From: Candidatus Woesearchaeota archaeon
Lineage (GTDB): Archaea > Nanobdellota > Nanobdellia > SCGC-AAA011-G17 > UBA489
Length of the DNA: 64,000 bases
Direction: 5' to 3'
NCBI GenBank assembly: GCA_018302985.1
Contig: JAGVZA010000001.1
Coordinates: forward strand, 10,919-74,918
Both the position numbers and the translations under genes were made by a program. Shown here one piece after another: positions 3,289-64,000 of this stretch. The notes below the pieces were generated by a model. It made no database searches, was not told the DNA's origin, and saw only the letters and a program-made list of their open reading frames with translations. Within the stretch, counting starts at the first letter, position 1. Each line of letters starts with the position of its first letter.

Positions 3289-3289
3289 C

Positions 3290-6676: not shown

Positions 6677-6782
6677 TGTGTTCTCCAATATATATCTTAG
6701 AGTAATTATATCAAGGAAGTATATTAAATTATGCTGTCGGAAAAACGACAACATTATAAAGACAAATAAGAGTCTAAAAAAG

Positions 6783-37452: not shown

Positions 37453-37941
37453 TTAAGAAACTTTGCCACAAATAACGTAAGCTCTTGTTGTAATAGATCC
37501 TGGACCCCATTGCTGACAGTACCATCCCCGTCTATCATCAGTAAATCGAGTTTGATGCATTTCTGTTCCCTGTGAATTTGCTTGACAACCTCCGCCAAGA
37601 ACTATATAACCGGGATCGCAATCAACTCGTGCTTCAGTGCCTGGTTGTGCAGCACTTTCTTTATACACAACTAAGTTAGGACTTAATTTCTCTGTAGACC
37701 AAGATAATGCAGATGCTACTGCAACATCACTCATTCCCCATCCGGCACTAGAAGGAATAGCCGCACATAAGGGATTTTGTGGATTAGCTGCGCAGTTCGG
37801 AGTAGCACCTTCAACTTCTCCGATAGTATGCCCCATAACTTGAGGATTATTGCTTCCATAGGCAACTACAATACTAACAGCAGAAATAACTAAGATAAGT
37901 AACCAAACATATTTTTTCTCAATAGTGATATTGATTTGCAT
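37453..37941 (-). CDS. surface protein with conserved N-terminal handle and a Cys-rich head (paralogue 3 of 3)
   Basis: MQINITIEKKYVWLLILVISAVSIVVAYGSNNPQVMGHTIGEVEG, followed by a unique 117-aa domain with 8 Cys. Confidence 0.65.
   Translation of the reverse strand: MQINITIEKKYVWLLILVISAVSIVVAYGSNNPQVMGHTIGEVEGATPNCAANPQNPLCAAIPSSAGWGMSDVAVASALSWSTEKLSPNLVVYKESAAQPGTEARVDCDPGYIVLGGGCQANSQGTEMHQTRFTDDRRGWYCQQWGPGSITTRAYVICGKVS
37811..37941 (-). repeat. 5' handle module, near-identical copy A
   Basis: Differs from 38861-38991 at about 12 of 131 aligned positions by eye. Similarity ends abruptly at the 3' boundary of the module. Confidence 0.85.
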
Positions 37942-37950
37942 TTTTCCCTC

Positions 37951-38493
37951 CTATGAACAAAATATTAACATATTAACATCTACGTTTCCAGTATAGGGGC
38001 GTACTTGGATATCCATTATTGTATAATGGAATGTGTCTGCATCTACAATAGTTCCCATAACAGGCACAAAAACTGGACCATACTCATCACTACTGCTCCA
38101 AGGCATTCTCTTGGCTGTTAAGAATACTTGATAGTTTGCATTAGGACAGGCAGGTGAAAACGTAAATTCTTGGCGAGCTTCAGCACCTTGAACAGAAACT
38201 GTTTGTGAAGCTATACGCATTTGTCTACCATTAAGACGTTGACTATCCCAAGCAATTCCAGCCCATCCAGCTACTACACCTAATCCCCAATTAGAATTAC
38301 GAGGACCAGTACAGACATTATCGCCAGAAATAAGTGGATTAGCACAAGTAGGAACAACACCTTCAATTTCTCCAAAGTTATGTCCCATAACTGGCGGATT
38401 GGTGCCTCCGTAAGCAACAACAAAGCCAACAGCTACAACTGCCAAAACCAAAAACCACAAATGTTTTTTCTCAATGTTAATATTAATTTGCAT
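37951..38493 (-). CDS. surface protein with conserved N-terminal handle and a distinct head (paralogue 2 of 3)
   Basis: MQININIEKKHLWFLVLAVVAVGFVVAYGGTNPPVMGHNFGEIEG, followed by an unrelated 135-aa domain. Confidence 0.65.
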   Translation of the reverse strand: MQININIEKKHLWFLVLAVVAVGFVVAYGGTNPPVMGHNFGEIEGVVPTCANPLISGDNVCTGPRNSNWGLGVVAGWAGIAWDSQRLNGRQMRIASQTVSVQGAEARQEFTFSPACPNANYQVFLTAKRMPWSSSDEYGPVFVPVMGTIVDADTFHYTIMDIQVRPYTGNVDVNMLIFCS

Positions 38494-38496
38494 CGT

Positions 38497-38991
38497 TTAT
38501 TTCTCCTTTAAGCAATAAAAAGTTATGCTACAACCAGGCACATCCGGACATGACGTGTCTCCAGCAAATGCTGCGCCACAAGTAGTGGACTGAACTGAAG
38601 TTAACTCATACCCCTGAGTCTGGCAATAGGCAGTAATTGCCCGCAAACAACCCTTATATCCTTGAAAACCACCGCGATCATTATTTCCTGTATAAATATT
38701 AGTATATTGTGCTAAACTCGAGATCTGAAAAGGAGCACTGGGTGTAAAAATAGTGTCTTGTGAACCATAAGTATAGCGTCGTCCTTCGATAAGTTGTTTG
38801 CCACTTAAATAAGTTGCAGCTTGTGTATTCATCACATCAATAACTTTCTGATCTACTCCATCAACTTCTCCGATAGTATGTCCCATAACTGGTGGATTAT
38901 TGCTTCCATAGGCAACTACAATGCCAACAGCAGAAATAACTAAGATAAGTAACCAAACATATTTCTTTTCAATGCTTATCTTGATTTCCAT
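38497..38991 (-). CDS. surface protein with conserved N-terminal handle and a distinct head (paralogue 1 of 3)
   Basis: MEIKISIEKKYVWLLILVISAVGIVVAYGSNNPPVMGHTIGEVDG, followed by an unrelated 119-aa Cys-containing domain. Its start overlaps the upstream gene by 16 nt. Confidence 0.65.
   Translation of the reverse strand: MEIKISIEKKYVWLLILVISAVGIVVAYGSNNPPVMGHTIGEVDGVDQKVIDVMNTQAATYLSGKQLIEGRRYTYGSQDTIFTPSAPFQISSLAQYTNIYTGNNDRGGFQGYKGCLRAITAYCQTQGYELTSVQSTTCGAAFAGDTSCPDVPGCSITFYCLKEK
38861..38991 (-). repeat. 5' handle module, near-identical copy B
   Basis: See copy A (37811-37941). The intervening paralogue (38363-38493) is clearly more diverged. Confidence 0.85.
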
Positions 38992-40622
38992 TGCACACCT
39001 CTCCTAAATGAGTAGAAGATTATTAATAAAACTATGGTTATTAAAAAGTTAGACCAAGTAAAGACTGGGAAGTTTTCTCCTTCTTGAGAATTGACACAAG
39101 TTTCAGTAAGTGGATATCCTGCACAGCTGCAATGAGTTCCCCCTTGAAGAACAGTACAAGTACGAGTTTGTTGTCCACCAACACAAGGAGACAAAGGACG
39201 ATTATAAGTACAAGTAGGCGATCTGCAAGTAAATGCTCCGCGGTCGCAAACAGTTTGTACTCCATTAGCGTTGCTGCAAGGTAAAGGATTACTCAAGACT
39301 TTGCAACCACTAGGTCCAGTTAAACAGAAGTAGGATTGTGTAAGATCACTTTGACAAACCATAAATGTTGCAGGTACTCCTCTACATAAAGGATGATCTT
39401 CACAACTTTGTCCATTAGTATTGATTTCTCGTCTGCAAGTAGAAGAACAACCATCACCACTGACAGTATTATTATCGTCGCAGCGTTCATTATTGCTGCC
39501 TTCTACAATGCCATTGCCACATTGTGCTGCTGGTTGTGATTGAACAGTAAGTAAAGCATTTTGTGGAGACGCAGTTTGTACTTGTGAACTGCCTCCTGTG
39601 ACAGTGACTTGGAAATAGTAATGATTAGATCCATTCAAGAAATATTCTGTAATCCAAGTACTCGATGCTGTAGCACTAGTACTATTAGCAAAAGTTGCTG
39701 GTTGAGGTGAGGATAAAACTAAATTATTATTGTCTCTGTCAAAGACTTGGAAGTGAGCGATTTTACCTTGACAGTCAGCGCTGCCAGTAACAGTTAAGTC
39801 TACAGATTCTCCTTCTAAGGCGCTTGTTCTGCTCCAACTAGCTGCTAGATTGCTACATTGTTGGCGATAAGGACAATTATCATCTGCAACAAGAACAGAA
39901 CAGGAATCATTAATAAATAAATCACAGACATCTCCAGCACCATCACCATCAGTGTCAAGCTGGTCAGCATTAACAGTAGTCCTGCAATTATCAGCACATT
40001 GAAGAAGGTTTGAATGTACTCTTGGATCACAAGGAGTGTTAACTAAACTGCCTAATCCAATATCAAAGACACCATCAGTATCAGTATCAGGTCTATACTG
40101 TCCTCCACCAGAAACAGTACCGTCAGAGCAACACAAGTCAACAGAATAAATACCACAATCAGATACATGAGCATTCGTTTCCGCAGAAAGTGAAGCTACA
40201 CATCTCCAGGTAGGTCCTAAAGTAGAGCATTGTCCTTGTGGTTGTGTGCTGCAAGTGATATTGCCAAAACAAGCACGCTGTTGGTAAGCAGTAAATTCTT
40301 TCTTTTCAACATGAGCATTAACAGTATCAGATAAACGAAGAACAACATTGGTGCCTGCAGTATTACATTGTCGACTTGTTGCTCCTTGACCATCCCAACA
40401 AACAGCATAAGTATATTGGGTTTGAGTTGCTAAAGCTGCATGAGCATTGTTAGATCCAGAAACACGAAAAAGAATCTTGTCTGTAGAACATTGATCACTG
40501 ATAGCTTGTCCTGTAGGGGAAGATATTTCGAAGGGAGCATCAAGATCATAAACAGAACTGGCTAAATAACCAGCTAAGAGTACTAAAAAAACTGGTCCTA
40601 AGACTCTGAGCTCAACACGCAT
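38976..40622 (-). CDS. large Cys-rich secreted protein with a C-terminal TM anchor
   Basis: ATG 40622 (MRVELRVLGPVFLVLLAG signal). Three ~45-aa repeats each carrying NAH(A/V). TSP3-like DTDTDGVFD and DTDGDGAGDVCD. CGNGIVEGSNNERCDDNNTVSGDGCSSTC Cys-rich repeat. Terminal TM segment plus RRG. Confidence 0.75.
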   Translation of the reverse strand: MRVELRVLGPVFLVLLAGYLASSVYDLDAPFEISSPTGQAISDQCSTDKILFRVSGSNNAHAALATQTQYTYAVCWDGQGATSRQCNTAGTNVVLRLSDTVNAHVEKKEFTAYQQRACFGNITCSTQPQGQCSTLGPTWRCVASLSAETNAHVSDCGIYSVDLCCSDGTVSGGGQYRPDTDTDGVFDIGLGSLVNTPCDPRVHSNLLQCADNCRTTVNADQLDTDGDGAGDVCDLFINDSCSVLVADDNCPYRQQCSNLAASWSRTSALEGESVDLTVTGSADCQGKIAHFQVFDRDNNNLVLSSPQPATFANSTSATASSTWITEYFLNGSNHYYFQVTVTGGSSQVQTASPQNALLTVQSQPAAQCGNGIVEGSNNERCDDNNTVSGDGCSSTCRREINTNGQSCEDHPLCRGVPATFMVCQSDLTQSYFCLTGPSGCKVLSNPLPCSNANGVQTVCDRGAFTCRSPTCTYNRPLSPCVGGQQTRTCTVLQGGTHCSCAGYPLTETCVNSQEGENFPVFTWSNFLITIVLLIIFYSFRRGVQWKSR

Positions 40623-44837: not shown

Positions 44838-44862
44838 CCTCTTCAGTCCCACACCGTATCTT

Positions 44863-44946
44863 GCGGATATGCCGGAGCGGTCAAACGGGCTAGCTTGAGG
44901 TGCTAGTGGCTTAGTGCCTGCGCAGGTTCGATTCCTGTTATCCGCA
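44863..44946 (+). tRNA. tRNA-Leu (anticodon GAG), long variable arm
   Basis: Acceptor GCGGATA/TATCCGC. Anticodon stem CTAGC/GCTAG with loop TTGAGGT. T arm GCAGG-TTCGATT-CCTGT. Discriminator A. Confidence 0.9.
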
Positions 44947-44960
44947 TTTCACAATCAACA

Positions 44961-45312: not shown

Positions 45313-45627
45313 ATGACATTACAAAAAAGATTAGAGCAATTGACTAAAGAAGTAACAGACATAGTAAGATCTAGTGAAGATCATCCAACAAGAGATCAAA
45401 TTATTGAAGAAATGGTAGAGATGCATGGCGCGGTATTCGCAGTTCCTGCCGCTGAGACTCCAATTGCAGTATTCAAAAGACAAGTCGCATCTACAATTCG
45501 TAATCTTGTTGCGCAAACAATTTTTCAAGAATATGAAATGCATGGGAGTAAAGTATACAGCATGCGATCAATACAGCAGTCTAGTACAGCACAACCAGTT
45601 ACAGGAGAAACATATAGAACACCATGA
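45313..45627 (+). CDS. hypothetical protein inserted between rpl18e and rpl13
   Basis: 104-aa ORF packed tightly (1-nt gap upstream, 4-nt overlap downstream). No confident motif; a winged-helix fold is only a guess. Confidence 0.5.
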   Translation: MTLQKRLEQLTKEVTDIVRSSEDHPTRDQIIEEMVEMHGAVFAVPAAETPIAVFKRQVASTIRNLVAQTIFQEYEMHGSKVYSMRSIQQSSTAQPVTGETYRTP

Positions 45628-46055
45628 TCATCGACGCAACAGATTTAATCTTAGGAAGAATGGCAGCACAAGTAGCAAAGCGTGCAATCCTAGGTGAAGA
45701 AATCTCAATTATCAATGCGGAAAAAGCTGTTATCACAGGAGATAGAAAAGGCGTTCTAGAAAAATACAGACATCGTGCAGTCTATCAAGGTCAACCAAAA
45801 ACAGGTCCGTTCTTCTTTACAAAAGAAAACTTGTTTGTAAAGCGTGCTATTCGAGGTATGGTTCCTCATAAAAGGCCAAAGGGAAGAGACGCGCTCAAAA
45901 GAATTAAATGTTATATCGGTGTTCCAGATGAATTCAAGGATAAAAAGACAGAAACATTGTCCGGTGTCCACGTCAGTAAAATGCAAAATCTTAAATACAT
46001 TTCAGTGAAAGAAATATGTCACCTCTTAGGTCGAAAAGATCCTCGTGAACAATGA
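45624..46055 (+). CDS. rpl13: 50S ribosomal protein L13
   Basis: [19 protein letters not shown].. N terminus; 143 aa. Confidence 0.93.
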
Positions 46056-46453
46056 GTAAAGTAACACACACCTCTGGAAAGCGAAAGCGTGCCATAGCGC
46101 GTGCTACCATAGCTGAAGGAAAAGGTATAGTTCGCATTAACCATCAACTCTTAGAAACTTACGAGCCAAGAATGGCGAGAATGCGCATCATGGAACCGCT
46201 TATGTTGGGTGCTGAAATTGCGAAAAAAGTAGATATTGACGTCGATGTTATTGGTGGCGGCCAGCAAGGACAAGCTGACGCGGTGCGTCTTGCGATCGCA
46301 AAAGGATTAGTGCAATTCTCAAAGAGCAAGCAATTAAGACAAGACTTTTTACAATATGATAGAAACCTTTTAGTAGCCGATGTAAGGCGCAACGAACCTC
46401 ATAAACCGAACGATTCTAAGCCACGTGCAGCCAGACAGAAGAGCTATCGCTGA
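46052..46453 (+). CDS. rps9: 30S ribosomal protein S9
   Basis: [12 protein letters not shown].., [20 protein letters not shown]-terminal RQKSYR. Confidence 0.93.
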
Positions 46454-47946
46454 ACAGTAGTAACAAATTTATTTTTTTGTAATTTGTATTTACGATTATT
46501 ATTTCCGATTAAATGCATAAATCCTAAGTGTTCCAAATTATTTTCTTTGCGAACTCTTTTAATTACAGAATCACTTACTCCAACTTCTTTACGTATCTCA
46601 GAAAATTTAACTATAGAATTTTCTTTGTAGATCTGAATAATTCGTTGGATTTTTTCTTCAGGTATTTTACATAAGGACTTATTACTCTTCTTGATTTTAT
46701 ATTTTTTACAGATTCGAGTAATAGTAGCTTCATGAACTTGAAAATGTTCAGCTAGTTTTTTATGAGATAAATGTAAATTATTACGAGCAAAATCTGCAAT
46801 TTCTTTGCGAAGAGGCTCTGGTGTTGGTTTTTTAGCTCTTTTTCCAAGATCATTAGCTCGTAAAACTCTATTGACTTTTATAGGACTTATTCCTAATTGT
46901 TCAGCAATAGTTACTGTTCTCGTTACTCCAGCATTATAAAGTTCTACAATTTTAGCAATCTTTTCCTGAGGAATTCTGTGTGGAATATACTCTCCTTTAG
47001 GTCTAAAATAAGGTGTTTCATCACGAATATTTGGATATTGTTTCATCATTGTGCAAAATTTAGCATATTTTTCATGTGATAAAGTCATTAATTGCTGTAG
47101 AAGAAGTTGAATATTATTTTTTCGTTTAGATATGACTAATTTATCTCCAGGATATTTGATACTGTCTACTTCTAATTTTTTAAGAGATTGATAATAGATT
47201 TCTTTTTCATCTTCTTTAGAAACAGATATATGAACACGATACTTTTTATCCGTTTTTGATAACTCTACACAACCCTCTCCAGCAATAATACCCCTCATAA
47301 ATCCCCTAATAAGTTCTTTATCAAAATTTAAAAGCTTTTCATAAGTAATTTTCTTGATAAAATGTTTGAGAATGTCACTAAAAAGTTTATTTTTATACTC
47401 CAGAACTAGCGTACCATAGTCATGGAATGACAATATTTTATTTTGTGTATAGTTTTCATTAACATAGGTAACTTTCTTTGGATAGGACTTTTCAAGAGAT
47501 GTTTTTGTTCTTTGCAGCCAATGATTGACAGCTTTAGTTTCAACTTGCTCTCTGTAGGTTTGATCTACAGGTTCATTAATGTTCAGCTTAATACTCCATC
47601 GCCAAGTGTCATAGGGCAGATTAAAGACATCAGTAAACCATTGCATAACTTGATTGATAATACAATATTCATGATTGGGAAAAGAAAGATTTCCATTAGG
47701 GGTTTTACCCATTTCAGCTTGTAAAAGGCCTAAAACTTCAAAAGTTTCTTCAGTTTGAGGAATATATCGAGGTAGAGTATAGGAGTACTCTTGAAATCCT
47801 GTACCGCTAGGAGCAATAGCTTCTAGGTGATAATTAACCATAATATGGCTTTCATCAAGTATAATATTGAGAGGGTACTCTACTCCACCTTCAGTCACGA
47901 TACTTTCAGGCAGATATTCCAAGACATCTAGATATTGTTGTTGCAT
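46444..47946 (-). CDS. LAGLIDADG-like double-motif protein fused to three C-terminal HTH modules
   Basis: Motifs [12 protein letters not shown] and [15 protein letters not shown], then three HTH-like repeats ([19 protein letters not shown]; [20 protein letters not shown]; [20 protein letters not shown]). The 3' end overlaps the rps9 stop region by 10 nt. Confidence 0.6.
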
Positions 47947-47982
47947 CCATCAAAAATCATGCAGATATTTAAATACCTTTCA

Positions 47983-48002
47983 GGGGTCTTTGAGAAGTAA
48001 AC
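47983..48002. repeat. left copy of a perfect 20-bp inverted repeat (GGGGTCTTTGAGAAGTAAAC)
   Basis: Exact reverse complement of 50519-50538. On the minus strand it is followed after 7 nt by TATTTAAATA and then the ATG at 47946. Confidence 0.9.
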
Positions 48003-48108
48003 TACTTTTCTAATATCTATTTAGAAGTTTTCCGGAATTTTCGGAAGAGTTCCGGATTGTTTTGAGAAATTTTTCTATATTTAATATGTAGTTGAGGGGG
48101 AAAGGATA

Positions 48109-48519
48109 TTAAGATTTTTTTCTAGAGAATATTTTACTCGGTCTTTTTTGAGGTCTACTCTTGCGATAAATCCAATAGACAACAAGTCCAATTAAAATCC
48201 AGAAAAGTATTGTTATGGGATGAAACTTAGATCCTTGTATCCCTTCTACAAATCCTTTTAAAGCAGCTATGACAATAAAAATGAGAAAGAGTATTTTTAA
48301 TAGTCGAGAAAATCTGCCTTTTGCTAAGGGATATCTTCCTTCTTCATGAGTGCATGCCCAGATTAACGCAATGATCCAGCCTATAATCGTCCAGCCTAAA
48401 GTAAAATTTAATACAAATATTGCCAAAGTATTCTTTTTTGCTCTGGAATAGCCTATAATAGTTGGAAGCAAATATATACCTAGTAAAAACAGTGATTGAA
48501 TAATTAATTCTTCATTCAT
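48109..48519 (-). CDS. membrane protein with a superinfection-immunity-like (Imm_superinfect) domain
   Basis: YLLPTIIGYSRAKKNTLAIFVLNFTLGWTIIGWIIALIWA matches the family signature (..lPsiiA..r...n..aIf.lN...GWT..GW..AliWA), plus two further TM segments. Confidence 0.65.
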   Translation of the reverse strand: MNEELIIQSLFLLGIYLLPTIIGYSRAKKNTLAIFVLNFTLGWTIIGWIIALIWACTHEEGRYPLAKGRFSRLLKILFLIFIVIAALKGFVEGIQGSKFHPITILFWILIGLVVYWIYRKSRPQKRPSKIFSRKKS

Positions 48520-49100
48520 CGGTTCCCTTCGTCACATAAAACATTGTCTTTATTGCATAACCCATTAATAAAGTAAGGTTTACCAGCTTCCCATCTGTCA
48601 TAATTGTAATTTTTACCAATAGGTCCCCATTTAAAATAATCACAAGCACCAGCTTTAACTAAAGTTTGAGAAGGGTTAACAATCACTTGAAAGGTATCGA
48701 GAAGCTTATTTTGTTTATACAATCCTATATTAGCTATAAGTCCTGCACCTTCCAAATCTTCTTTTCCTATATTACACACATCTCCTATAAGATAATAGTG
48801 TATAATAGGTTCTTGGTTTAACAGTTTGAATGCTTGTGCGTTAGGCATCTCATCGATAATATTAACATTTTTAACTTCTAGAAAGTCCATATAACTCTTA
48901 AGTTGTTTATTTTGTGTGTTTAAGACGTCTGTTTCTTGTTTTAATTCTACGGGCGATTTTACGCTTGGTTTAATCTCTTCAGAAATTGGTTGTTGACTAG
49001 AAGAGTTTGAAAAAAGATCTTGTACTCCGTTAAAAATAAGAAAAAGAGCAAATATAGTTCCTATAACAAACCAAAATCCTTTTTTCTTTTCTTTACTCAT
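48516..49100 (-). CDS. membrane-anchored hypothetical protein
   Basis: ATG 49100 (MSKEKKKGFWFVIGTIFALFLIF). ATGA overlap with the downstream gene. Confidence 0.5.
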   Translation of the reverse strand: MSKEKKKGFWFVIGTIFALFLIFNGVQDLFSNSSSQQPISEEIKPSVKSPVELKQETDVLNTQNKQLKSYMDFLEVKNVNIIDEMPNAQAFKLLNQEPIIHYYLIGDVCNIGKEDLEGAGLIANIGLYKQNKLLDTFQVIVNPSQTLVKAGACDYFKWGPIGKNYNYDRWEAGKPYFINGLCNKDNVLCDEGNR

Positions 49101-49845
49101 TCTGTCTAACGCTTCCTCTACAATCTGCAACTTCATCAGTAGCGACAAGGCCTTTTAGTTTATCACAATATTTTTCATTTTGCCATTCAGTAGCGAGTTG
49201 AAACCAACAATTGAATAGTTTCTCTTTATCTTGAACCTTTTCACAATATTCAGGCAAATTATAAGTTTTTGCATATTCTTTTTCACATTCATCAGTCCAT
49301 TTATAGACTAAAGGAGCTTTAAAATATTGAGGAGGGTATTTTGCCTTACATTCTTCAAAAAACTGTTCCCAAGGAACTGCTTTTGGTGCTTGTTTCTTTT
49401 CTACTGCCATGAGCACTCTTTCTTCTTTCACACGTGGATCAGAAATAGTAATATCCCATTCTCCATCTGCTTTAATGTCAAGAATATAATCATCTTGATA
49501 GTCGATAGTGACTAATTTCTCACCAGAGTATTTGCCTATATCATTTACTAATAAACTAATCCGATCGCCTTGGCTATCTAGTAACCAAATAGCAAAATTA
49601 GCTCTTCCACCATGCAACATTTTGAACTTTAAAAGACCTGGTGTTGCATGAAAGAAATCTGATACTTTGTCCCCTCTACCTCTAAAAACAATAGACTGAA
49701 AAGTTGCTTCTGTTGCTTGTTGTTTTTGCGAATTGTCTCCTAGATTTTTACTATCTTGAACGATTTGTTGATTATTTACTGGGGTAGTATTACAAGCGGA
49801 AATAAAAAAAACAGTTATTAAAATTAAAAGATAACTTTTTTTCAT
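49093..49845 (-). CDS. secreted protein with a lipobox-like signal (ISAC) and a Cys-rich C terminus
   Basis: MKKSYLLILITVFFISACNTT signal peptide; 250 aa. Confidence 0.55.
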   Translation of the reverse strand: MKKSYLLILITVFFISACNTTPVNNQQIVQDSKNLGDNSQKQQATEATFQSIVFRGRGDKVSDFFHATPGLLKFKMLHGGRANFAIWLLDSQGDRISLLVNDIGKYSGEKLVTIDYQDDYILDIKADGEWDITISDPRVKEERVLMAVEKKQAPKAVPWEQFFEECKAKYPPQYFKAPLVYKWTDECEKEYAKTYNLPEYCEKVQDKEKLFNCWFQLATEWQNEKYCDKLKGLVATDEVADCRGSVRQNE

Positions 49846-49846
49846 T

Positions 49847-50173
49847 TTAACGCTCCTTCCTAATAAGAGCCATTAATCCACCAACTAATAAAAGTGCACC
49901 TGGAATTATATAGAAAGCACTAATGCTAATTACTCCACAAACTGCTGCAATAGTCATAAACCAGCCAGCCATTTTAGTTTTATGTTTAACAATAGAAGCA
50001 CCAATAATTCCTAAAATCGAAAAAAGAATTGCTGAAAACCCAAGCCAAAGGACTTCGTTCCCCATACCAAATGCAGCACTTACTCCTCCAAAGAGTAAAC
50101 TCAGTAAACCAAAGAAAATGCCAAAAACACCTCCGATAAGTCCTAAGGTGAATTCTGCAGTTCGTTTTATCAT
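49847..50173 (-). CDS. small 3-TM membrane protein
   Basis: Gly-rich TM segments (LGLIGGVFGIFFGLLSLLFGG..). First gene of the four-gene minus-strand operon. Confidence 0.55.
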   Translation of the reverse strand: MIKRTAEFTLGLIGGVFGIFFGLLSLLFGGVSAAFGMGNEVLWLGFSAILFSILGIIGASIVKHKTKMAGWFMTIAAVCGVISISAFYIIPGALLLVGGLMALIRKER

Positions 50174-50219
50174 CCTAATCCCATAGTTCTTTCATTCTTT
50201 AGATCTATAAATCTATGCA

Positions 50220-50266
50220 ACAATATTGTGGAATATAGCTATATAAAGTTTTCTACAATATTGTGG
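50220..50266. promoter_or_regulatory. twin palindromic operators flanking a TATA box in a divergent promoter
   Basis: ACAATATTGTGG occurs at 50220-50231 and again at 50255-50266 (the core ACAATATTGT is self-complementary). ATATAAAG at 50241-50248 lies between them. The wHTH ATG is at 50268. Confidence 0.6.
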
Positions 50267-50267
50267 T

Positions 50268-50486
50268 ATGTCAAAAAGGACTATCCAAGAGGTAAGAAAG
50301 GTTATTCTTGAAGTTCTCAGTGATGGTAAAGAGCATGCTTATGGAGATATAGAAAGAAAAGCGAATACTAATTGGCAGACAGTAAGAGATCATTGTAAGG
50401 ATTTAGAGTTGTTTGGAGCTGTTGTTATTGCTGGTAATAAGGTGAAAATAACAAAGCAAGGACGAGAGATTTTAAAGAAGTTGTAG
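50268..50486 (+). CDS. small winged-helix DNA-binding protein
   Basis: 72 aa. VILEVLSDGKEHAYGDIERKANTNWQTVRDHCKDLELFGAV is wHTH-like. Confidence 0.6.
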   Translation: MSKRTIQEVRKVILEVLSDGKEHAYGDIERKANTNWQTVRDHCKDLELFGAVVIAGNKVKITKQGREILKKL

Positions 50487-50518
50487 TTATCTATATGAAT
50501 ATATATGTTCCAGTATCT

Positions 50519-50538
50519 GTTTACTTCTCAAAGACCCC
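50519..50538. repeat. right copy of the perfect 20-bp inverted repeat (GTTTACTTCTCAAAGACCCC)
   Basis: Followed after 7 nt by TATATAAAG, then GGAGGTGA and the ATG at 50596. Confidence 0.9.
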
Positions 50539-50595
50539 CATGAGATATATAAAGCCAAGTCAGTTCTTAGTTGTATCAACCCGGAGGTGACCTTT

Positions 50596-50712
50596 ATGGC
50601 GCTCAAAGTATTCAGATTACATCGTGAAAAAGGACCAGCCTATCCATTGGCTAAGGTCATCGGTGAAGACTTTATTATTATAGGCAAGGAAGAGCTGCTA
50701 GTCAAATCTTAG
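50596..50712 (+). CDS. 38-codon ORF (MALKVFRLHREKGPAYPLAKVIGEDFIIIGKEELLVKS), hypothetical
   Basis: Absent from the ORF track because it is under 60 aa. GGAGGTGA lies 5 nt upstream of the ATG, and a TATA box lies about 45 nt upstream. Confidence 0.35.
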   Translation: MALKVFRLHREKGPAYPLAKVIGEDFIIIGKEELLVKS

Positions 50713-50800
50713 TCGAACAGAGACTTTCCTGGGGGGTTGCTCTTCCCCTATCTTTTTCTAAAAAGAAACCTTTAAAAACCATATAAAAGTCAATGAATAT

Positions 50801-50998
50801 ATGATTATCCCTATTCGATGTTTCAGCTGTGGCCGCCCAGTAGCCCATCTCTGGGAAGCTTTTAATGAGCGAGCAGCCAAAGGCGAAGACAAAGGAAAAG
50901 TAATGGATGATCTAGGCTTGGAAAGATACTGTTGCCGAGCATTATTCTTAGGCCATGTTGACTTAATCGACGTTGCCTCCAAATTTAAGAAAGCATAA
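50801..50998 (+). CDS. rpoN: DNA-directed RNA polymerase subunit N (Rpb10)
   Basis: MIIPIRCFSCG...ERYCCR zinc-bundle motif; 65 aa. Confidence 0.95.
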   Translation: MIIPIRCFSCGRPVAHLWEAFNERAAKGEDKGKVMDDLGLERYCCRALFLGHVDLIDVASKFKKA

Positions 50999-51034: not shown

Positions 51035-51745
51035 ATGGTTAGAGTAGATGCTAAAAAATCACATCACGATTTAAAACAGTATAAATATCTGGGAATAATA
51101 ACTGCTTTGTATATTACTTTTCAACTTGTTGCTGATGTAACTGCTGGAAAACTAGTGCAACTAGGAATCTTCACAGTGTCTGCAACTGTTCTTTATTTTC
51201 CATTTACCTATATATTCGCTGATTGTTTAACTGAAGTATATGGTTATGCGAAGGCAAGAAGTGTCATATGGATGGTTTTTTTCAGCTCTGTAATTGCGGG
51301 TTTAATTTATTCACTTGTAGTTATATTACCTCCCGCTATAGGTTTTGATGCAAATGAAGCTTACACAAGAGTCTTAGGACAGGTTCCAAGAATACTTATT
51401 GGTGGATGGATAGCTGTATGGGTTGGAGGAATCATAAATGACTACACTTTGGCAAAAATGAAAATCTGGACTCATGGAAAGCATCTATGGGCAAGAACAA
51501 TTACATCTACAATCTTCGGCGAAGGTGCAAATACTATTCTTTTTTTCACAATTGCTTTGTCTGGAATTATACCTAAAGAGTTACTCATAGCCTCTATTCT
51601 TTCAGGATGGCTTATCAAGGTAGCAATAGAAGTTATCATGACTCCAGTGACTTATTATGTTGTTAGAAAACTCAAGAAAGCTGAAAATGAAGATCACTAC
51701 GATTACAATACGAACTTCAATCCATTAATAATAAAGCCTCAATAA
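51035..51745 (+). CDS. queuosine/archaeosine precursor transporter (YhhQ/VUT family)
   Basis: ITFQLVADVTAGKLV..LYFPFTYIFADCLTEVYGYAKAR matches the YhhQ signature. Six TM segments. Confidence 0.75.
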   Translation: MVRVDAKKSHHDLKQYKYLGIITALYITFQLVADVTAGKLVQLGIFTVSATVLYFPFTYIFADCLTEVYGYAKARSVIWMVFFSSVIAGLIYSLVVILPPAIGFDANEAYTRVLGQVPRILIGGWIAVWVGGIINDYTLAKMKIWTHGKHLWARTITSTIFGEGANTILFFTIALSGIIPKELLIASILSGWLIKVAIEVIMTPVTYYVVRKLKKAENEDHYDYNTNFNPLIIKPQ

Positions 51746-55872: not shown

Positions 55873-55930
55873 TATAGGAAGTATTAAATTACTCGATTAT
55901 TTATATCTATGTTGACATTTAATGACAACT

Positions 55931-55938
55931 TTTATAAA
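55931..55938 (+). promoter_or_regulatory. TATA box for the fifth trmB-like gene
   Basis: TTTATAAA lies 24 nt upstream of ATG 55963. Confidence 0.55.
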
Positions 55939-55962
55939 GCTAAGATATCTGGTTTGACTAAT

Positions 55963-56685
55963 ATGGAAAAAGAAGCATTAGAAGGTTTTGGATTATCAGA
56001 AAAAGAAATAAAAATTTATCTTCAGTTATTAAGAGAGAAATCTTGTACTGCCGCTAAATTAGCCAAGCTTTCTAACCTGAATAGAACGACTGCTTATTTA
56101 GAGCTTGATAACTTAATGAAGATAGGAATTGTAAACTACACAATAAAGAATTCTAAAAGATATTATCAACCTGCTAGTCCTGACAAGTTATTGTTTATAC
56201 TTGATGAAAAAAAAGAAAAGATTAAGGCAATTTTACCAGAATTAAAAGCGCTCCATTCTACCGATCAACCATTCAAAATAGAGGTGTTTGAGGGAAGAGG
56301 AGGGATAAAAACTTTTTATCAGGACATTTTGAATAGTGTAAAAGAATTTTATGTTATAGGAGCAACTGGTGAGGCTTTGAATGTTATGGAATTTTCTTAT
56401 CCTCATTTTCTAAGGAAATTTATTAAGTCTGGAATAAAGGAAAGGGCTCTAGCAAATTTGGAATCAAAAAGATTAATGGAAAATATTCATCCAAAGAAAT
56501 TTCTTGAAATAAGGTATTTACCTCAGGAATATAAAGCAAAAGTAACTACTATAGTATATGGAGAGAAGGTAGCTATTCAGTCTCTCCAAAAAGAAAATAT
56601 TTATGTTGTAGTTATAAAAGATAAGCTATTAGCCCAAACTTATAAAACATTATTTGAATTTATGTGGAAAGCTGCAGAAAAGTAG
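55963..56685 (+). CDS. TrmB-family transcriptional regulator
   Basis: MEKEALEGFGLSEKEIKIYLQLLREKSCTAAKLAKLSNLNRTTAYLELDNLMKIGIV. The listed upstream extension includes the TATA box. Confidence 0.85.
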   Translation: MEKEALEGFGLSEKEIKIYLQLLREKSCTAAKLAKLSNLNRTTAYLELDNLMKIGIVNYTIKNSKRYYQPASPDKLLFILDEKKEKIKAILPELKALHSTDQPFKIEVFEGRGGIKTFYQDILNSVKEFYVIGATGEALNVMEFSYPHFLRKFIKSGIKERALANLESKRLMENIHPKKFLEIRYLPQEYKAKVTTIVYGEKVAIQSLQKENIYVVVIKDKLLAQTYKTLFEFMWKAAEK

Positions 56686-59159: not shown

Positions 59160-62100
59160 TCAATAAATCCTTCGTAATCGTACATAACGGAAATAAAATG
59201 CTAAAGCTAAGACAAAAAAGACCAAGGGTATTCTTACCCAAATAGTGGAAAATAATCTAGGAGGTTGTTGATTCTCTTGGACTCGTGACGTTTCCTCATA
59301 ATGAGGTGTTAAAGGTCCTCGTACTTCTTTTGAAGAATCTTGTAAAGTGGGAATACGTTCACGAATAAGACGACTAAAGGTCAAAGTAACTACATTGCCA
59401 TCAAGTGCAACATATTCTATATTGGCATCACTAGTGCTATCTTGAGAAAGATCAATTCCTAAACGTTGGCCAAGAGGAATGCTATAGCTATCTCCTAAAA
59501 CTGTAAGGATAACTGCTTCAGCTGTTGCATGAGGTACTCTTACACCATATTCTTGTCCTTGGTAAATAACACTGATCCTGCTATTGCGAAGAACTGAAAC
59601 TGTTTGTTGGATATTAGTATCTAAGTCTACTACGACACGTTGGTTGGCATTGTTTCCTCCGCCACTGCCGCCAGAACTTGATCCTCCAGGAGGGCAAGCG
59701 CCGCAGTCTTGTGAACAAAGACTACAACTTTCATCTAGATTACAATAAGTATCTCCACATGTGCCTGGTTGTGTGCTGTATTCTGAAAATCCAGGAACTG
59801 TAACTGTATAGTCTCCATTCGCATAAGTTTGACTGACACAAACAAGAGAAGAACAAACTAGTCCATCGCGTAAAGGAGTAGGAGCAGTTGTTGAAGTTAA
59901 TCCGCTAAAAATTAAAGTAGCTGGATAATTGAATTCAGAAGTGAGTGTACTATCTAAGCCAATGAGATTAGGTTGTAAAGTGATCTCAGTATCTAAGTCT
60001 AATGCTTGATGAATATTATTTACTATACGTAAGACAGAAATTTCTCTGCCAGGATACTGGAGTCTGCCTACACCAACAATGCCTAAACTGAGATCTTGAA
60101 CATGTTCTAAATCTTCCACTTGAGTGAAATCGGTTGTTAGACTTGGGCTAAAAGAAGTAACTCGAGGTAAAGGACAACCATTTCTTAGGCTTACAACAAC
60201 ACTAGCAGGAGTAGTTAAACATCGGTCACGTGAATCAGGTATAGTATCGCAATCACTATCAGGTTGACAGATAAGTGCTGAGTTAGTCAGAGATGTTGCA
60301 GTGCATAATCCAATACCACAACCCTGATTGATTCTGCAATCTGTAGGTAAAGCACAAGATCTAGCATAATCACATAAGTATCCAGCTGGTGCACAAATGG
60401 GACCGCCACAATCAATATCAGTTTCATAATTATCTCTTATACCATTAGTACAATCAATAACCTGTCCTTGAACTACATTCAGAGTAATAGTGTCAAGACG
60501 TTGAGCAGAGGATGAAGTTGCTTGTAAATCTACAATATAAGATTGTCCTGTTAGTACATTGCCTATGCCTAAGGATAAGGAGAGTTGACAAGTAGGATTA
60601 GGAGTACAACTATTGCCTTGTGGAAGCTGGAATGCTGCTGTAATACCTGTAGGAGCAGTTGTGCTGACTGTCACTTGTTCTGAAGTGCTAAAAGGAACAC
60701 CAGTAAGAGTGAGAGTAACTGGTAATTGTGTATTAGGAACAACTGTAGCTGTGGAAGGTTGCACTCCCAAAGCAAAAGTGAAAGGTTGTCTAACTGATAC
60801 AAGTACAGAATTAGAAGGAACTAGATCTCTGTTAACAACAACTAAAGAATAATCTCCTGGTGGAACGCCTGGTGGAATATTAGGCGCTTGAATAAGTTGA
60901 TGAGTAGGTGAAGTCCATGCTCCTTGGTAAAATTGTCCTGCAATTACAAGTGCAATAGGATCAAATTCTTGTCCTTGAATATCCAGAGTAGTAAATTGAT
61001 TATTCATCAAAAGAGGAGGATTTAAAGAAGTAATTCTAGGCAATGCTGTTATTGTAAAAGAAGCACCCATCGATGTTCTTCCTGAAGTAGGATTAAACAC
61101 AGTCACTTGATGTTGTCCAACTCCATAATCTCTTATTTGGTATTGGAAGACAATTTGTGTTGAAGTTCGTGAAATAATACGGCTAGGAATAACTGTAATG
61201 CCATCAACTCTGACTTCTGCATTTGCTGCGAAATATTGTCCTGTCAAAGTAATAGGTTGCAAAATAGCTAAATTAATACTAAAAGGTGAAATAGTAGTAA
61301 GTCTAGGATTTTCTTCTGTACATCCGCAGGTAGTAGTTGAAGCGCAAGTTTGTGTTTGTGTACATCCCCCATTTGCGCTGCATGCAGCACCACATTGTCC
61401 TTGAGTGCAAGCATAGGTACAGCTGCCAGCTTGGACGCAACGAGTTGCTCCTCCACTAGATTGGGTGCCTGAACAACCTAAGCACCAGTCACAAGAAGTG
61501 TCGCCTTCACAAGCAGCATTAACATTGTATTGATTACAACAATTCGTGCCTCCAACAGTCACTGGTCGTGATGGATCTGTTCCTGACTGATAAGAATATT
61601 GAGGATTGATCGTGCATCGAGCAGTTTGTTGTCCTGCAGTTGCTTGACTCGTGCAGGTGAAGGAAGCAATATTGCTATTCCAGTTCTGGAAGATACAAGG
61701 TTGTGCTCCTAAAAATGCTTGGATGCTGGGAACATTACCAACAGTTGCAGTACAGGTTACTGTGAAAGAAGTTCCTGGACAAATAGTAGCGGATGCTGTG
61801 ATTGCTGTGACTCCCACTGCGCAGTCTTGGTCTCCATCTGGAGGTGTGGCTGCAGTTCTTGGGCCTGCATGATCTGCTCTGCCGTCGCAGTCATCATCCA
61901 AAGTATTCGTGCATCTGTTGACTTCAGTCGTTTGATAATTATTATTGTTGTTTTGATATTGAGTTGTTCCACATGCTTGCCATCCTGAGACTCCTCCGCA
62001 AGATTGTCGTGCTCCTGCGCACACTCCTACTTGATTGAGACAGAGAGGTGCAAATTGTGATTGAATATCATCTGTTTGTCCATTACAATTATTGTCTTGT

Positions 62101-64000
62101 CCATCGCATAACGTTTCAGAACCGACTTGGTAATTGACTCCATAGGTTGCTTGTGCATGATTTTGATATATCGTTGTCGTACATCCGCCCACTGGCCAGA
62201 TGTTACTAGTGGTACAAGTTTCAGTTGCTCCTTGACAAACACCTTGAGTTAATCCGCATGCTCTGATTTGTCCGGAGGTGCAGACAACAACACTCAATGA
62301 GTAAGGAGTATTTCTAATAGTTGTTCCAGAGGTTCCAGTAACTGAAACTTGCTGATTATTTACAAGAGTAGCAGTACTAGATGCAGTTAAAGTCATTGTA
62401 GTAGAGCAAGGAGTTCCAGCTGTCGGAGTGCAACTAGAGGGATTAAAAGAAGCAAGTACACCAGAAGGCAAATTTGAAGCGCTAAAAGTAACAGAACCAG
62501 AACCAGAAACTTGAGTAGCAGTTATTGTCGACTGTATGGAATTGGTCAGTCGAACTGTGCCACTAGTTGGATTTGCAGCCATAGTAAAATCGAAAGAAGT
62601 ACTAGTACCCATGGCAGTCTGAATTTCAGAAGCGCTTAAACCTCTGTTGTAAATTCTAACATCATCAATTTTTCCATCCATCCAATCCCAATCTGGTCCA
62701 GATGCAGGAGGCCATGACCCTATATGAAGAGCCCCACTATTAGCAGGAGCATTTGGAATACCAGCAACAGTTTGTTCCAAAACACCATTAACATAAAGTC
62801 TCAAAGTTCCTGCATTCCAAGTGCAAGCAATATGATAATAGGTGTTAACAGCTATTGTAGTTGTAGATGAAGCAAAATTACCCCCTCCAACTCGACAATT
62901 AAAACGATTTCCAGGAGTCACTTCAATTTCATAAGCATGATTAGGAACATTTCCTTTTGCTATAATTCCATGCCATTTTGAACTATCTCTTTTAATCCAA
63001 GCCATAATTGTCCCTTGAGTAGTCAAATCAAGCAAGTCGTCATCAGCAACAGTTAGCTCATCATTTGTTCCATCAAAATCATAAGCCCCATTTAACTGTC
63101 CACTAGCAGATAAATAACTAGGACATGCTCCAGAAGCACAAGTTCCAGGCAGATTGTATATCGAAGAATCTATTGCAGGATCAGAAACACCAACAGTATC
63201 ATCAAATTTCCAATGTCCTACCAAAGAAGGATCTCCTTCTTGACATGGAATATTACAACAAACTCCACTTCCTGAGTGTAGCAAAGAATTTCCCAGACAA
63301 TAATAACCATTAGCACAAATAAATCCATTTTGCGCAGCACAGGATGGTGGTGAAGGAACTACAACAGTTACAGTATTAGAATAACTAGAATTTCCTCCAG
63401 CGTTGAAAGCTCTTACTTTATAATAATAAGTCGTAGTATGAGTAACAGTATTATCTGTAAATGTAAAATCATTAGCAGAATTAGTTCCGATCTGTATAAA
63501 TCCTGAAGTAGGAAATAAACTTCTTTCAATATAAAATCCATCTTCATTAGTGCTTGCATCAGTCCAAAGTAAGTCAACTTGCGAAGAAGTTAAACTAGAA
63601 ACTTGCAAACCAGAAGGGGCAGTAGGAAGATCAAAAACATTAAAACCAAATCTATTGCTTAATTGATCGTCCAGGTTTCTCACTTGAAATTCATAAGCAC
63701 TAGCTCCTAGAGTGAGGTTGGTTTGAATTCGGCTAGAGCTCATTACAGTATAATATCCTGTCAAAGGTATACAAGTAGTATCGAAACAAAGTTCAAGTCT
63801 AGCCCCGGGATAATCAAAATTATACCCAGTTATAGTGAAAAGAGTATTTTGATTGCTGGCTGCAGTGCTTGGATTAACTCCAATTATAAAAGGACCAGTG
63901 CTTCCAGCCCCATACTCATAAGCTCCAGCATCTTGAACGCTTCCTCTTAAATTACCTCTTATGTCACGAAGAGAGTTAAAAGTAGGCAAAGAATTATCAG
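59160..64000 (-). CDS. giant Cys-rich surface protein (over 1,610 aa; N terminus outside window) with a C-terminal TM anchor
   Basis: Frame is open to base 64000. IPT/TIG-like repeats, an FN3 (LQVSSLTSSQVDLLWTD..YYYKVRAFN), a LamG-like module (GHWKFDD..IDDVRIYNRGLSASEI), CDGQDNNCNGQTDD-type motifs and the terminal TM segment IPLVFFVLALAFYF. Confidence 0.85.
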   Translation of the reverse strand, partial: DNSLPTFNSLRDIRGNLRGSVQDAGAYEYGAGSTGPFIIGVNPSTAASNQNTLFTITGYNFDYPGARLELCFDTTCIPLTGYYTVMSSSRIQTNLTLGASAYEFQVRNLDDQLSNRFGFNVFDLPTAPSGLQVSSLTSSQVDLLWTDASTNEDGFYIERSLFPTSGFIQIGTNSANDFTFTDNTVTHTTTYYYKVRAFNAGGNSSYSNTVTVVVPSPPSCAAQNGFICANGYYCLGNSLLHSGSGVCCNIPCQEGDPSLVGHWKFDDTVGVSDPAIDSSIYNLPGTCASGACPSYLSASGQLNGAYDFDGTNDELTVADDDLLDLTTQGTIMAWIKRDSSKWHGIIAKGNVPNHAYEIEVTPGNRFNCRVGGGNFASSTTTIAVNTYYHIACTWNAGTLRLYVNGVLEQTVAGIPNAPANSGALHIGSWPPASGPDWDWMDGKIDDVRIYNRGLSASEIQTAMGTSTSFDFTMAANPTSGTVRLTNSIQSTITATQVSGSGSVTFSASNLPSGVLASFNPSSCTPTAGTPCSTTMTLTASSTATLVNNQQVSVTGTSGTTIRNTPYSLSVVVCTSGQIRACGLTQGVCQGATETCTTSNIWPVGGCTTTIYQNHAQATYGVNYQVGSETLCDGQDNNCNGQTDDIQSQFAPLCLNQVGVCAGARQSCGGVSGWQACGTTQYQNNNNNYQTTEVNRCTNTLDDDCDGRADHAGPRTAATPPDGDQDCAVGVTAITASATICPGTSFTVTCTATVGNVPSIQAFLGAQPCIFQNWNSNIASFTCTSQATAGQQTARCTINPQYSYQSGTDPSRPVTVGGTNCCNQYNVNAACEGDTSCDWCLGCSGTQSSGGATRCVQAGSCTYACTQGQCGAACSANGGCTQTQTCASTTTCGCTEENPRLTTISPFSINLAILQPITLTGQYFAANAEVRVDGITVIPSRIISRTSTQIVFQYQIRDYGVGQHQVTVFNPTSGRTSMGASFTITALPRITSLNPPLLMNNQFTTLDIQGQEFDPIALVIAGQFYQGAWTSPTHQLIQAPNIPPGVPPGDYSLVVVNRDLVPSNSVLVSVRQPFTFALGVQPSTATVVPNTQLPVTLTLTGVPFSTSEQVTVSTTAPTGITAAFQLPQGNSCTPNPTCQLSLSLGIGNVLTGQSYIVDLQATSSSAQRLDTITLNVVQGQVIDCTNGIRDNYETDIDCGGPICAPAGYLCDYARSCALPTDCRINQGCGIGLCTATSLTNSALICQPDSDCDTIPDSRDRCLTTPASVVVSLRNGCPLPRVTSFSPSLTTDFTQVEDLEHVQDLSLGIVGVGRLQYPGREISVLRIVNNIHQALDLDTEITLQPNLIGLDSTLTSEFNYPATLIFSGLTSTTAPTPLRDGLVCSSLVCVSQTYANGDYTVTVPGFSEYSTQPGTCGDTYCNLDESCSLCSQDCGACPPGGSSSGGSGGGNNANQRVVVDLDTNIQQTVSVLRNSRISVIYQGQEYGVRVPHATAEAVILTVLGDSYSIPLGQRLGIDLSQDSTSDANIEYVALDGNVVTLTFSRLIRERIPTLQDSSKEVRGPLTPHYEETSRVQENQQPPRLFSTIWVRIPLVFFVLALAFYFRYVRLRRIY

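Follow-up and report, generated by a model that had tools for sequence, protein, structure and literature searches.

The locus considered here raises the question of what has come between two genes, rps9 and rpoN, that are normally contiguous in archaea. It belongs to a tiny groundwater archaeon and lies in a 64-kilobase (kb) stretch of a Candidatus Woesearchaeota contig (JAGVZA010000001.1, identical to JGI 3300025317 Ga0209541_10000561), referred to below as the window, which has a GC content of ~37% and encodes signal recognition particle (SRP) RNA, 5S rRNA and a block of ribosomal-protein and RNA-polymerase genes; related records are labelled Woesearchaeota or Nanoarchaeota, that is, DPANN archaea. 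On the plus strand the order is S13, S4, S11, RpoD, tRNA-Leu, L18e, a 104-amino-acid open reading frame (ORF), L13 and S9, with RpoN only after an island. The island is bounded by rps9 on the left (46052-46453, plus strand; Pfam Ribosomal_S9, E 2.9e-34) and rpoN on the right (50801-50998, plus strand; RNA_pol_N, E 4.5e-28), and the gap of 4347 nucleotides (nt) between them agrees with the 4.3 kb given in an initial annotation, which described the insert as an AT-rich accessory island and possibly an integrated element. The gap has three layers: a gene encoding a LAGLIDADG protein with helix-turn-helix (HTH) repeats, a cargo slot (48059-50496), and a conserved right border consisting of a 38-codon gene and rpoN. 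The junction looks like a recurrent insertion hot spot across the lineage, rather than the site of a one-off integrated element. The explanation favoured here, at a probability of roughly one half, is a free-standing, site-specific gene of the homing-endonuclease type, located where an operon boundary is permissive and accompanied by hitchhiking cargo.

The free-standing double-LAGLIDADG gene (46444-47946, minus strand) encodes a protein of 500 amino acids and is convergent with rps9, with a 10-nt overlap at its stop, an arrangement already described in the initial annotation. A first survey was anchored on this protein, using a family profile and species-representative genomes, and yielded 39 loci from Woesearchaeota/Nanoarchaeota, 38 of them informative. 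In all 38 the gene adjoins the 3' end of rps9, in either orientation. The common order is L18e-L13-S9-gene-RpoN with every gene in the same direction, and the inverted, convergent order of the window occurs in five loci. The distance from rps9 to the LAGLIDADG gene is mostly below 350 nt. In 11 loci rpoN begins at most 200 nt after the LAGLIDADG gene, with no other gene between rps9 and rpoN; other loci have 0.4-2.6 kb of unrelated genes between the LAGLIDADG gene and rpoN, and 90 of the 98 ORFs in these segments are singletons. This cargo is located on the rpoN side of the LAGLIDADG gene in both orientations.

A second survey, anchored on S9 and blind to the LAGLIDADG gene, covered 80 metagenome loci, 69 of which are informative. 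The canonical state, with rps9 and rpoN 5-175 nt apart, is found in 33 of the 69, which supports the premise that the two genes are normally contiguous. The LAGLIDADG gene adjoins rps9 in 15, and other DNA fills the junction in 21, so that 36 of 69 junctions contain extra DNA. The other occupants include a purine-synthesis gene, a pyridoxal phosphate (PLP) enzyme, a Fic protein and a second, unrelated LAGLIDADG_3 family. LAGLIDADG_3 proteins distinct from that of the window are encoded between rps9 and rpoN in L125 (6869-8302) and L119 (598-1938) and are 27% identical to each other; by hhalign, the large ORFs in junctions without the gene, these two included, are unrelated to the window's family. 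In L059, a relative at 61% identity, two more free-standing LAGLIDADG_3 genes are present near the same ribosomal block (2705-3547 and 13485-14213), one of them in a multi-gene insertion between L18e and RpoD. Closer to the window, all 47 contigs that encode an identical S9 or RpoN are colinear with it at 96-100% identity. No empty rps9-rpoN site occurs among these 47 population contigs, and the presence/absence junctions envisaged in the initial annotation are thus not found within them.

The LAGLIDADG/HTH gene is, from these surveys, a site-specific family located beside rps9 in dozens of species and not a private accessory gene. The protein-anchored survey had suggested a vertically inherited core gene of the order; this was dropped because about half of the S9-anchored relatives have empty junctions and because the alleles are discordant with their hosts.

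The host tree used for comparison is a neighbour-joining tree of S9+L13+L18e (~390 amino acids, 83 tips) and is poorly resolved. Occupied and empty genomes are interleaved on it, down to sister tips, and Fitch parsimony gives 22 changes on the 83 tips versus 26.8 for shuffled states; presence of the LAGLIDADG gene on this tree is almost random. The alleles add to this picture. Within the tight clade of the window (ribosomal-protein distances 0.06-0.14), the window's allele is found in L020 and L063 at 77-85% amino acid identity. The L060/L061 allele is ~53% identical to it (p 0.47) despite a ribosomal-protein distance of 0.12, and the window's allele is nearer to that of L059 (p 0.38) although the ribosomal-protein distance is 0.76. 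L062, a member of the same tight clade, has lost the LAGLIDADG gene, of whose upstream region 47 nt are left; a nucleotidyltransferase and a HEPN-like partner are encoded directly after rps9, replacing the endonuclease gene. This pair, consisting of a Polbeta/NTP_transf_2 protein and a partner of 136 amino acids in a toxin-antitoxin-like layout, occurs both in L061 (7936-8933, within the cargo) and in L062 (6598-7580).

Decayed copies of the LAGLIDADG gene, either deletion derivatives or frameshifted, are present in four loci (L065, L058, L055 and L056). The last part of rps9 has a DNA identity of 0.65-0.72, compared with 0.8-0.9 further upstream, in most comparisons of close relatives, and the S9 C-terminus has a mosaic pattern among relatives; both are weak signals, taken from 60-nt windows. 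At the other end of the junction, L044 contains a perfect 97-nt direct duplication (7835-7931 and 8222-8318) made up of 33 nt upstream of rpoN and its first 64 nt, with ~290 nt inserted between the copies, so that the last 23 codons of its endonuclease ORF are rpoN sequence. The rpoN start seems to have been rearranged recently.

The 500-amino-acid product consists of an N-terminal beta region, two LAGLIDADG domains and three C-terminal HTH repeats. Pfam gives several HTH matches and a weak match to LAGLIDADG_3 (19.3 bits versus a cut-off of 22.5), and many other members of the rps9-adjacent family score above that cut-off. In an alignment of 31 homologues the two LAGLIDADG motifs are VLGLLQAEM (with E78) and RGIIAGEG (with E224). 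An AlphaFold2 model built on the same alignment has a predicted local distance difference test (pLDDT) score of 85 and contains two helix-plus-strand domains, the N-terminal beta region and three three-helix units; the LAGLIDADG helices span residues 66-78 and 210-224, and beta strands follow each. A Foldseek search of this model against PDB matches the TliVMA intein endonuclease (2.8e-6), I-Tsp061I (2.5e-4), PI-SceI and I-OnuI-type meganucleases, with a probability of 1.00 for several LAGLIDADG enzymes, and also matches WhiA (8dy9_I, 3.2e-5; 3hyj, 8.5e-5). A PDB sequence search with the family profile gives no match below E 0.26. Among 40 family sequences, E78 is present in all 40, and position 224 is E in 37 and D in three. 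The predicted fold and the retained acids place the protein in the LAGLIDADG structural family, as the initial annotation had proposed from sequence.

The two parts of the protein differ in how constant they are. An exhaustive profile search recovers 71 clusters (at 50% identity) with E <1e-30, many of them ~300 amino acids long and lacking the HTH tail, which has between zero and three repeats across the family; the LAGLIDADG core is thus the constant part. The tail resembles the three-HTH protein Cbp1 (E 5e-10). Membership of the Cbp1 family was rejected, as the score for NCBIfam NF040595 is 39.3 bits versus a cut-off of 140, and only the layout of three tandem HTH units is common to both. 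The invariant residues W115, W117, N122, F89 and N91 are located on predicted beta strands. Between the window and L020 the ratio of nonsynonymous to synonymous substitution rates (dN/dS) is 0.12 for the LAGLIDADG gene and 0.10 for S9, values which indicate purifying selection on intact copies. A location within an intron or intein was rejected: the gene forms an ORF by itself, preceded by a TATA-like box of its own, it has no Hint/intein match, and no intron RNA family is matched. Rfam, searched over the rps9-rpoN interval with E up to 1, gives chance-level matches only. In databases a few family members are named 'LAGLIDADG family homing endonuclease' and most are hypothetical.

Beyond the LAGLIDADG gene, blastn and alignment with L060, L061 and L062 show where conservation ends. 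The conserved left flank stops within 48003-48058, with homology lost at ~48054-48058, and homology resumes at ~50497-50505, runs to ~50770 and continues in rpoN. The flanks are 80-88% identical to these three relatives, and the slot between them (48059-50496) has neither DNA nor protein homology to the same slot in any of the three; its contents are mutually unrelated in all four genomes. In L060 the slot encodes a NUDIX protein, a 2H phosphoesterase, a uridine-kinase-family protein and LemA. In L061 it encodes two small transmembrane proteins, a DUF4352 protein, a 304-amino-acid protein and the nucleotidyltransferase/HEPN-like pair.

The window's slot contains a four-gene minus-strand cassette, in which the genes abut or overlap, and a divergent regulatory gene. 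The first cassette gene (49847-50173) encodes a DUF4064 membrane protein of 108 amino acids with three transmembrane segments (PF13273, E 8.3e-13; phrog_6780, E 1.9e-27), whose homologues, at 50-63% identity, come from Woesearchaeota, Bacillus, an acidobacterium and Bacillus/Paenibacillus phages. It is followed by a gene (49093-49845) for a secreted or lipoprotein-like protein of 250 amino acids, with a signal that includes a lipobox-like FISAC and with seven cysteines; this is an ORFan that finds only itself among 5.8 billion clusters. Next is a gene (48516-49148) for an anchored protein of ~195-210 amino acids, with one N-terminal transmembrane segment and a cysteine-containing outer domain, which has no Pfam match; its start codon is uncertain (49148, 49136 or 49100), and the gene call gives 206 amino acids. 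The last gene (48109-48519) encodes a 136-amino-acid membrane protein with four transmembrane segments that matches Imm_superinfect (PF14373, E 1.8e-17, 63.4 bits versus a cut-off of 27.9, all 42 profile positions covered; phrog_1039, E 5.7e-21). The topologies are read from hydropathy, and the anchored protein from the ORF list as well.

Divergent from the cassette is the gene for a winged-helix protein of 72 amino acids (50268-50486, plus strand; HTH_45, E 9e-6, 26.1 bits versus a cut-off of 25.5). The 94-nt divergent promoter region contains two operator-like copies of ACAATATTGTGG, 35 nt apart (50220-50231 and 50255-50266), the second of which lies between a TATA-like box and the ATG of the winged-helix gene. 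The core of ACAATATTGTGG is a perfect palindrome, ACAATATTGT. Counting both strands, the window has four matches to ACAATATTGTGG, a number reached in none of 100 whole-window shuffles. The cassette and the winged-helix gene are found in this species alone among ~120 related loci, and the cassette genes in none of the protein-anchored loci. At the level of single genes the initial annotation is well supported: the coupled set of four genes for membrane and secreted products, the superinfection-immunity-type signature, the winged-helix gene with operator-like sites and the 38-codon ORF, which is conserved in relatives, are all borne out. The accessory character it assigned to the whole interval holds for the cargo, since the cassette and winged-helix gene are private to this species. 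It does not hold for the seven genes as one unit, as the LAGLIDADG gene is widespread beside rps9 and the 38-codon gene is conserved in the clade.

The cargo is bracketed by an inverted repeat. Its left arm (47968-48002, minus strand) includes the exact 20-mer GTTTACTTCTCAAAGACCCC at 47983-48002, and its right arm (50519-50553, plus strand) has the same 20-mer at 50519-50538. GTTTACTTCTCAAAGACCCC occurs exactly twice in the 64 kb, compared with an expectation of 0.01, and is the only significant repeat. A 35-nt form is not claimed, since one of 40 Markov controls also matched 29 of 35 positions; the exact 20-nt core is. Downstream of the left arm, ~20 nt before the ATG of the LAGLIDADG gene, is a TATA-like box, TTTAAATA; the right arm precedes another such box, ATATATAAAG, which is followed by a GGAGGTGA site and the 38-codon ORF. 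From this arrangement the left arm is a putative promoter/operator of the LAGLIDADG gene, and the right arm a putative promoter of the 38-codon gene. Both arms lie in conserved flanking DNA, at 56 and 22 nt from the cargo. The left arm is kept in L020, L060 and L061, the right arm in L060, L061 and L062, and in L060 both arms have the same two-base variant (CACGG). Because relatives with other cargo keep both arms, the repeat belongs to the conserved backbone; the 20-mer is not found in more distant loci such as L059 and L022. It may be that the repeat is a duplicated promoter-proximal element. By analogy with I-TevI, an endonuclease that also represses its own promoter (PMC3384342), the 20-mer may in addition act as an operator common to both sites, to which the HTH tail of the endonuclease itself possibly binds.

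The 38-codon gene itself (50596-50712, plus strand; product MALKVFRLHREKGPAYPLAKVIGEDFIIIGKEELLVKS), with the GGAGGTGA ribosome-binding site in front, has 85-92% amino acid identity in L060-L062, mostly synonymous changes and a dN/dS of 0.10-0.20. Its coding pattern indicates a real gene, which forms the clade-conserved right border outside the cargo. The segment that follows it (50713-50775, plus strand), consisting of GAGACTTTCCTGGGGGGTTGCTCTTCCCCTAT and a T-run, is almost invariant among the four relatives, and the stability of the hairpin there does not exceed that of shuffles (z -0.35).

The site is fixed, presence is patchy and in part discordant, the gene decays in some lineages and is under selection in others, and the active site is intact; a homing endonuclease gene is expected to show this pattern. 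As the gene lies outside any intron or intein, it would be of the free-standing type, like T4 seg/mob and yeast WHO. In such a model, the LAGLIDADG enzyme would act on related cells without the gene, cutting their uninterrupted rps9|rpoN junction, and repair from an occupied copy would import the gene and neighbouring DNA, in an ongoing or recent form of 'intronless homing'. The nuclease would have a long and highly conserved target where the end of rps9 (KPRxxRQKSYR) is fused to the start of rpoN (MIIPIRCFSCG); insertion would split this target, and occupied alleles would be protected. The turnover of the cargo between the LAGLIDADG gene and rpoN would come about through recombination in the conserved flanks. 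In the window's clade, the inversion of the endonuclease gene would have cut rpoN off from the ribosomal-protein transcript, and the inverted copy of the 20-35 nt nearest the endonuclease promoter may drive or co-regulate the 38-codon gene and rpoN. The 72-amino-acid winged-helix protein is probably a repressor that controls the cassette by binding the two palindromic operators, and the effect of the cassette, judged from family names, is likely an altered cell surface or membrane.

The position of the insertions may also have an explanation in transcription. In Methanococcus maripaludis, a terminator within the operon, located between rps9 and rpoN, reduces rpoN/rpoK expression, and growth is slower when it is mutated (PMC10450193). 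The boundary between rps9 and rpoN would thus be a natural transcription boundary that may tolerate insertions, which fits the 36 of 69 junctions with extra DNA.

Several observations weigh against a homing endonuclease. Between the LAGLIDADG core and S9+L13+L18e, distances are correlated (r 0.55-0.59; Mantel, 0 of 2000 permutations) as highly as among the ribosomal proteins themselves, so that vertical descent and losses could explain much of the history. The patchiness may be overstated through the poorly resolved tree of ~390 amino acids. The window's own close clade contains no empty junction, and hence offers no alignment of donor and recipient; viral contigs contain no relative of the endonuclease gene; and no duplicated rps9 3' fragments or old endonuclease remnants occur in the cargo. 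Homing would require sufficiently frequent exchange of DNA among DPANN archaea. The strongly conserved strands that face nucleic acid in the model, together with the HTH tail, would fit a regulator equally well. Finally, we infer DNA cleavage and its target, as we do homing, hitchhiking, regulation and the function of the cargo. The probability is set near even because of the distance correlation, the weak tree and the putative nature of the cleavage activity.

The main rival to a homing endonuclease is a domesticated LAGLIDADG-HTH transcription factor, an immobile archaeal analogue of WhiA that would bind the 20-mer at its own promoter and at that of the 38-codon gene and rpoN, coupling expression of an RNA-polymerase subunit to a signal; the variable DNA would then be an unrelated hot spot. 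WhiA/DUF199 of Gram-positive bacteria has the same architecture, a two-domain LAGLIDADG fold with a C-terminal HTH domain, and is among the Foldseek matches; three HTH repeats, purifying selection, invariant residues on predicted beta strands and co-divergence with the neighbouring genes all suit a regulator, as do the occurrence of one 20-mer before both promoters, its concerted change in L060 and the precedent of I-TevI, which doubles as its own repressor (PMC3384342). However, WhiA proteins have lost the catalytic acidic residues and cannot cut DNA (PMC3384342), whereas both acids are kept in 40 of 40 members here, and the family, which is archaeal, has a patchy distribution and is not found throughout its lineage. 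With the acids kept and no WhiA family among the 16 Pfam matches, the protein is not a WhiA member. A regulator of rpoN is also hard to reconcile with related genomes, about half of them, in which the gene is absent and rps9 is fused to rpoN, with close relatives that have ~50%-divergent alleles or none, with deletion derivatives and frameshifted copies, with a tail of zero to three repeats, and with the absence of the 20-mer from distant loci such as L059 and L022. The domesticated regulator is considered unlikely.

The interval could also be an ordinary flexible island, in which the boundary is tolerant because rpoN is transcriptionally buffered, recombination among strains shuffles the contents, and the LAGLIDADG gene is a slowly decaying passenger with no role in the turnover. 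The 21 of 69 junctions that hold DNA without the LAGLIDADG gene are in keeping with such an island, as are the terminator in M. maripaludis, the variable slot after rpoN (Vut_1 in the window, a TrmB-like gene in L062) and the extra ORF between L18e and L13 in some relatives only. Such an island leaves unexplained, however, why one family is tied to the rps9 3' end in 38 of 38 loci across deep divergence, why its catalytic residues are intact at a dN/dS of 0.12, and why the cargo is invariably found between that gene and rpoN; we regard it as quite improbable. Least probable, and very much so, is the integrated element of the initial annotation, mediated by an integrase or transposase, or a prophage remnant with a superinfection-exclusion module. 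Its composition is indeed AT-rich: in windowed GC the rps9-rpoN interval (0.326) is the lowest 4.35-kb stretch of the window (mean 0.368, sd 0.015) and the LAGLIDADG gene (0.309) the lowest 1.5-kb stretch. The shift is modest, however, because the downstream non-ribosomal genes are already at 0.345, and part of the contrast comes from the GC-richer ribosomal block (0.394). Further points in favour are the phage protein families to which Imm_superinfect and DUF4064 correspond, the inverted repeat on either side of the cargo, and L140, another Woesearchaeote, in which a similar module of a divergent winged-helix gene, DUF4064, a DUF4352 protein and a TM2 protein lies beside a tyrosine integrase. 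Yet no integrase, transposase, capsid or terminase gene is present in or beside the interval, its borders have neither attachment-site (att)-type direct repeats nor a tRNA, no virus genes are near the Imm_superinfect gene, the repeat arms are kept where the cargo differs and thus belong to the backbone, and the 47 colinear contigs show no presence/absence polymorphism. PADLOC detects no defence system in the interval, only weak, partial HTH-type matches, and an 'exclusion' role of the cassette would derive from the Pfam/PHROG family name.

The closest behaviour among known systems is that of free-standing homing endonuclease genes. In T4-like phages such genes (seg and mob) are located between conserved genes and spread by 'intronless homing' (PMC2988022). 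Like the LAGLIDADG gene, they are intergenic between genes conserved among relatives, patchy and adjoined by variable DNA, and their insertion can create a promoter problem for a downstream essential gene that an extra promoter solves (PMC2988022). Their enzymes are, however, of the GIY-YIG or HNH type, and phage genomes recombine during co-infection, whereas the gene described here is in a cellular archaeal chromosome, in a ribosomal-protein/RNA-polymerase operon. The yeast WHO elements, which encode a LAGLIDADG-derived nuclease beside FBA1 (PMC7282813), are similar in another respect: WHO and HO are free-standing, combine such a nuclease with an extra DNA-binding domain, lie immediately downstream of one conserved, highly expressed gene, and include divergent alleles and decayed copies (PMC7282813). 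WHO is, however, intein-derived and has zinc fingers, whereas the window's family has HTH repeats and no Hint/intein match. WHO homing also replaces the 3' end of its target and leaves clusters of pseudogenes with target fragments, while in ~120 loci no extra rps9 fragments or endonuclease remnants of this kind are found, the exceptions being the rpoN 5' duplication of L044 and one weak match in L054.

With I-DmoI, I-Tsp061I and PI-SceI-type enzymes the protein has in common the fold, two LAGLIDADG helices with terminal acids and a monomeric two-domain layout; it differs from the LAGLIDADG enzymes of introns and inteins in its location outside either, its extra N-terminal beta region and its zero to three HTH repeats. 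In the cargo, the 136-amino-acid protein differs from T4 Imm/Imm_superinfect in two extra transmembrane segments, an archaeal host and the lack of phage context, and the 108-amino-acid protein resembles DUF4064 proteins of Firmicutes and their phages, as reflected in its matches to DUF4064 and phrog_6780. What is new is the setting, in which a LAGLIDADG core with a tail of HTH repeats is encoded at a ribosomal/RNA-polymerase operon junction of a cellular archaeal chromosome, next to a hypervariable cargo slot. No description of an rps9-adjacent LAGLIDADG-HTH gene with a cargo slot was found in the literature. A more specific proposal is offered tentatively, as a possibility that we consider rather unlikely: the gene may be an archaeal counterpart of phage seg/mob and yeast WHO, whose nuclease recognizes the highly conserved, fused rps9-stop/rpoN-start, drives itself in and drags its neighbours along, with the 20-mer as its own binding site for self-repression and the re-wiring of rpoN. 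Homing would in this way turn the boundary of a core operon into a hot spot of gene exchange in DPANN archaea.

Other features of the window concern the same operon and its surroundings. The 104-amino-acid ORF (45313-45627, plus strand), which has no family match, lies exactly between L18e and L13. It is missing from L020, L060, L061 and L062, in which L18e and L13 abut, and is present in L063 at 57% amino acid identity; it is a second strain-variable insertion within the same operon. A tRNA-Leu(GAG) gene (44862-44947, plus strand) is located inside the operon between rpoD and L18e. Downstream, a Vut_1 gene of the queuosine-precursor transporter family (51035-51745, plus strand) is present between rpoN and a SprT-like gene, and is missing from relatives. 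In L059 and many S9-anchored loci rpoN is followed directly by SprT, and in L062 a TrmB-like gene comes in between; as its contents differ among relatives, the slot after rpoN is also variable. Further away, three tandem ORFs of 162, 180 and 164 amino acids (37453-38991, minus strand) have no family match, and two of them have in common a 135-nt segment at 90% identity (37808-37942 and 38858-38992) and look like tandem paralogues. Four TrmB-family paralogues, 27-35% identical, occur within the 64 kb (6744-7493, 13893-14648, 14843-15514 and 55909-56685). A very large ORF (59160-63989, minus strand), of >1600 amino acids here and 2422 in a sibling contig, has Laminin_G_3, TIG and fn3 matches and is probably a giant surface protein.

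Two consequences follow whether or not the endonuclease is active. A gene for 300-500 amino acids beside rps9 is not a random hypothetical protein and can be annotated with this in mind, and, with insertions at rps9-rpoN in over half of the relatives sampled, synteny at this junction is an unsafe marker within the lineage. Should the endonuclease prove active, the family would offer a LAGLIDADG scaffold of a new kind, whose HTH tail is modular and whose natural target can be predicted, and the locus would be a case of cellular, chromosomal intronless homing in archaea, at one of the most conserved of gene junctions. DPANN archaea have tiny genomes and a host-dependent biology, and an active endonuclease would provide a concrete mechanism for gene flow and strain-level variation among them.

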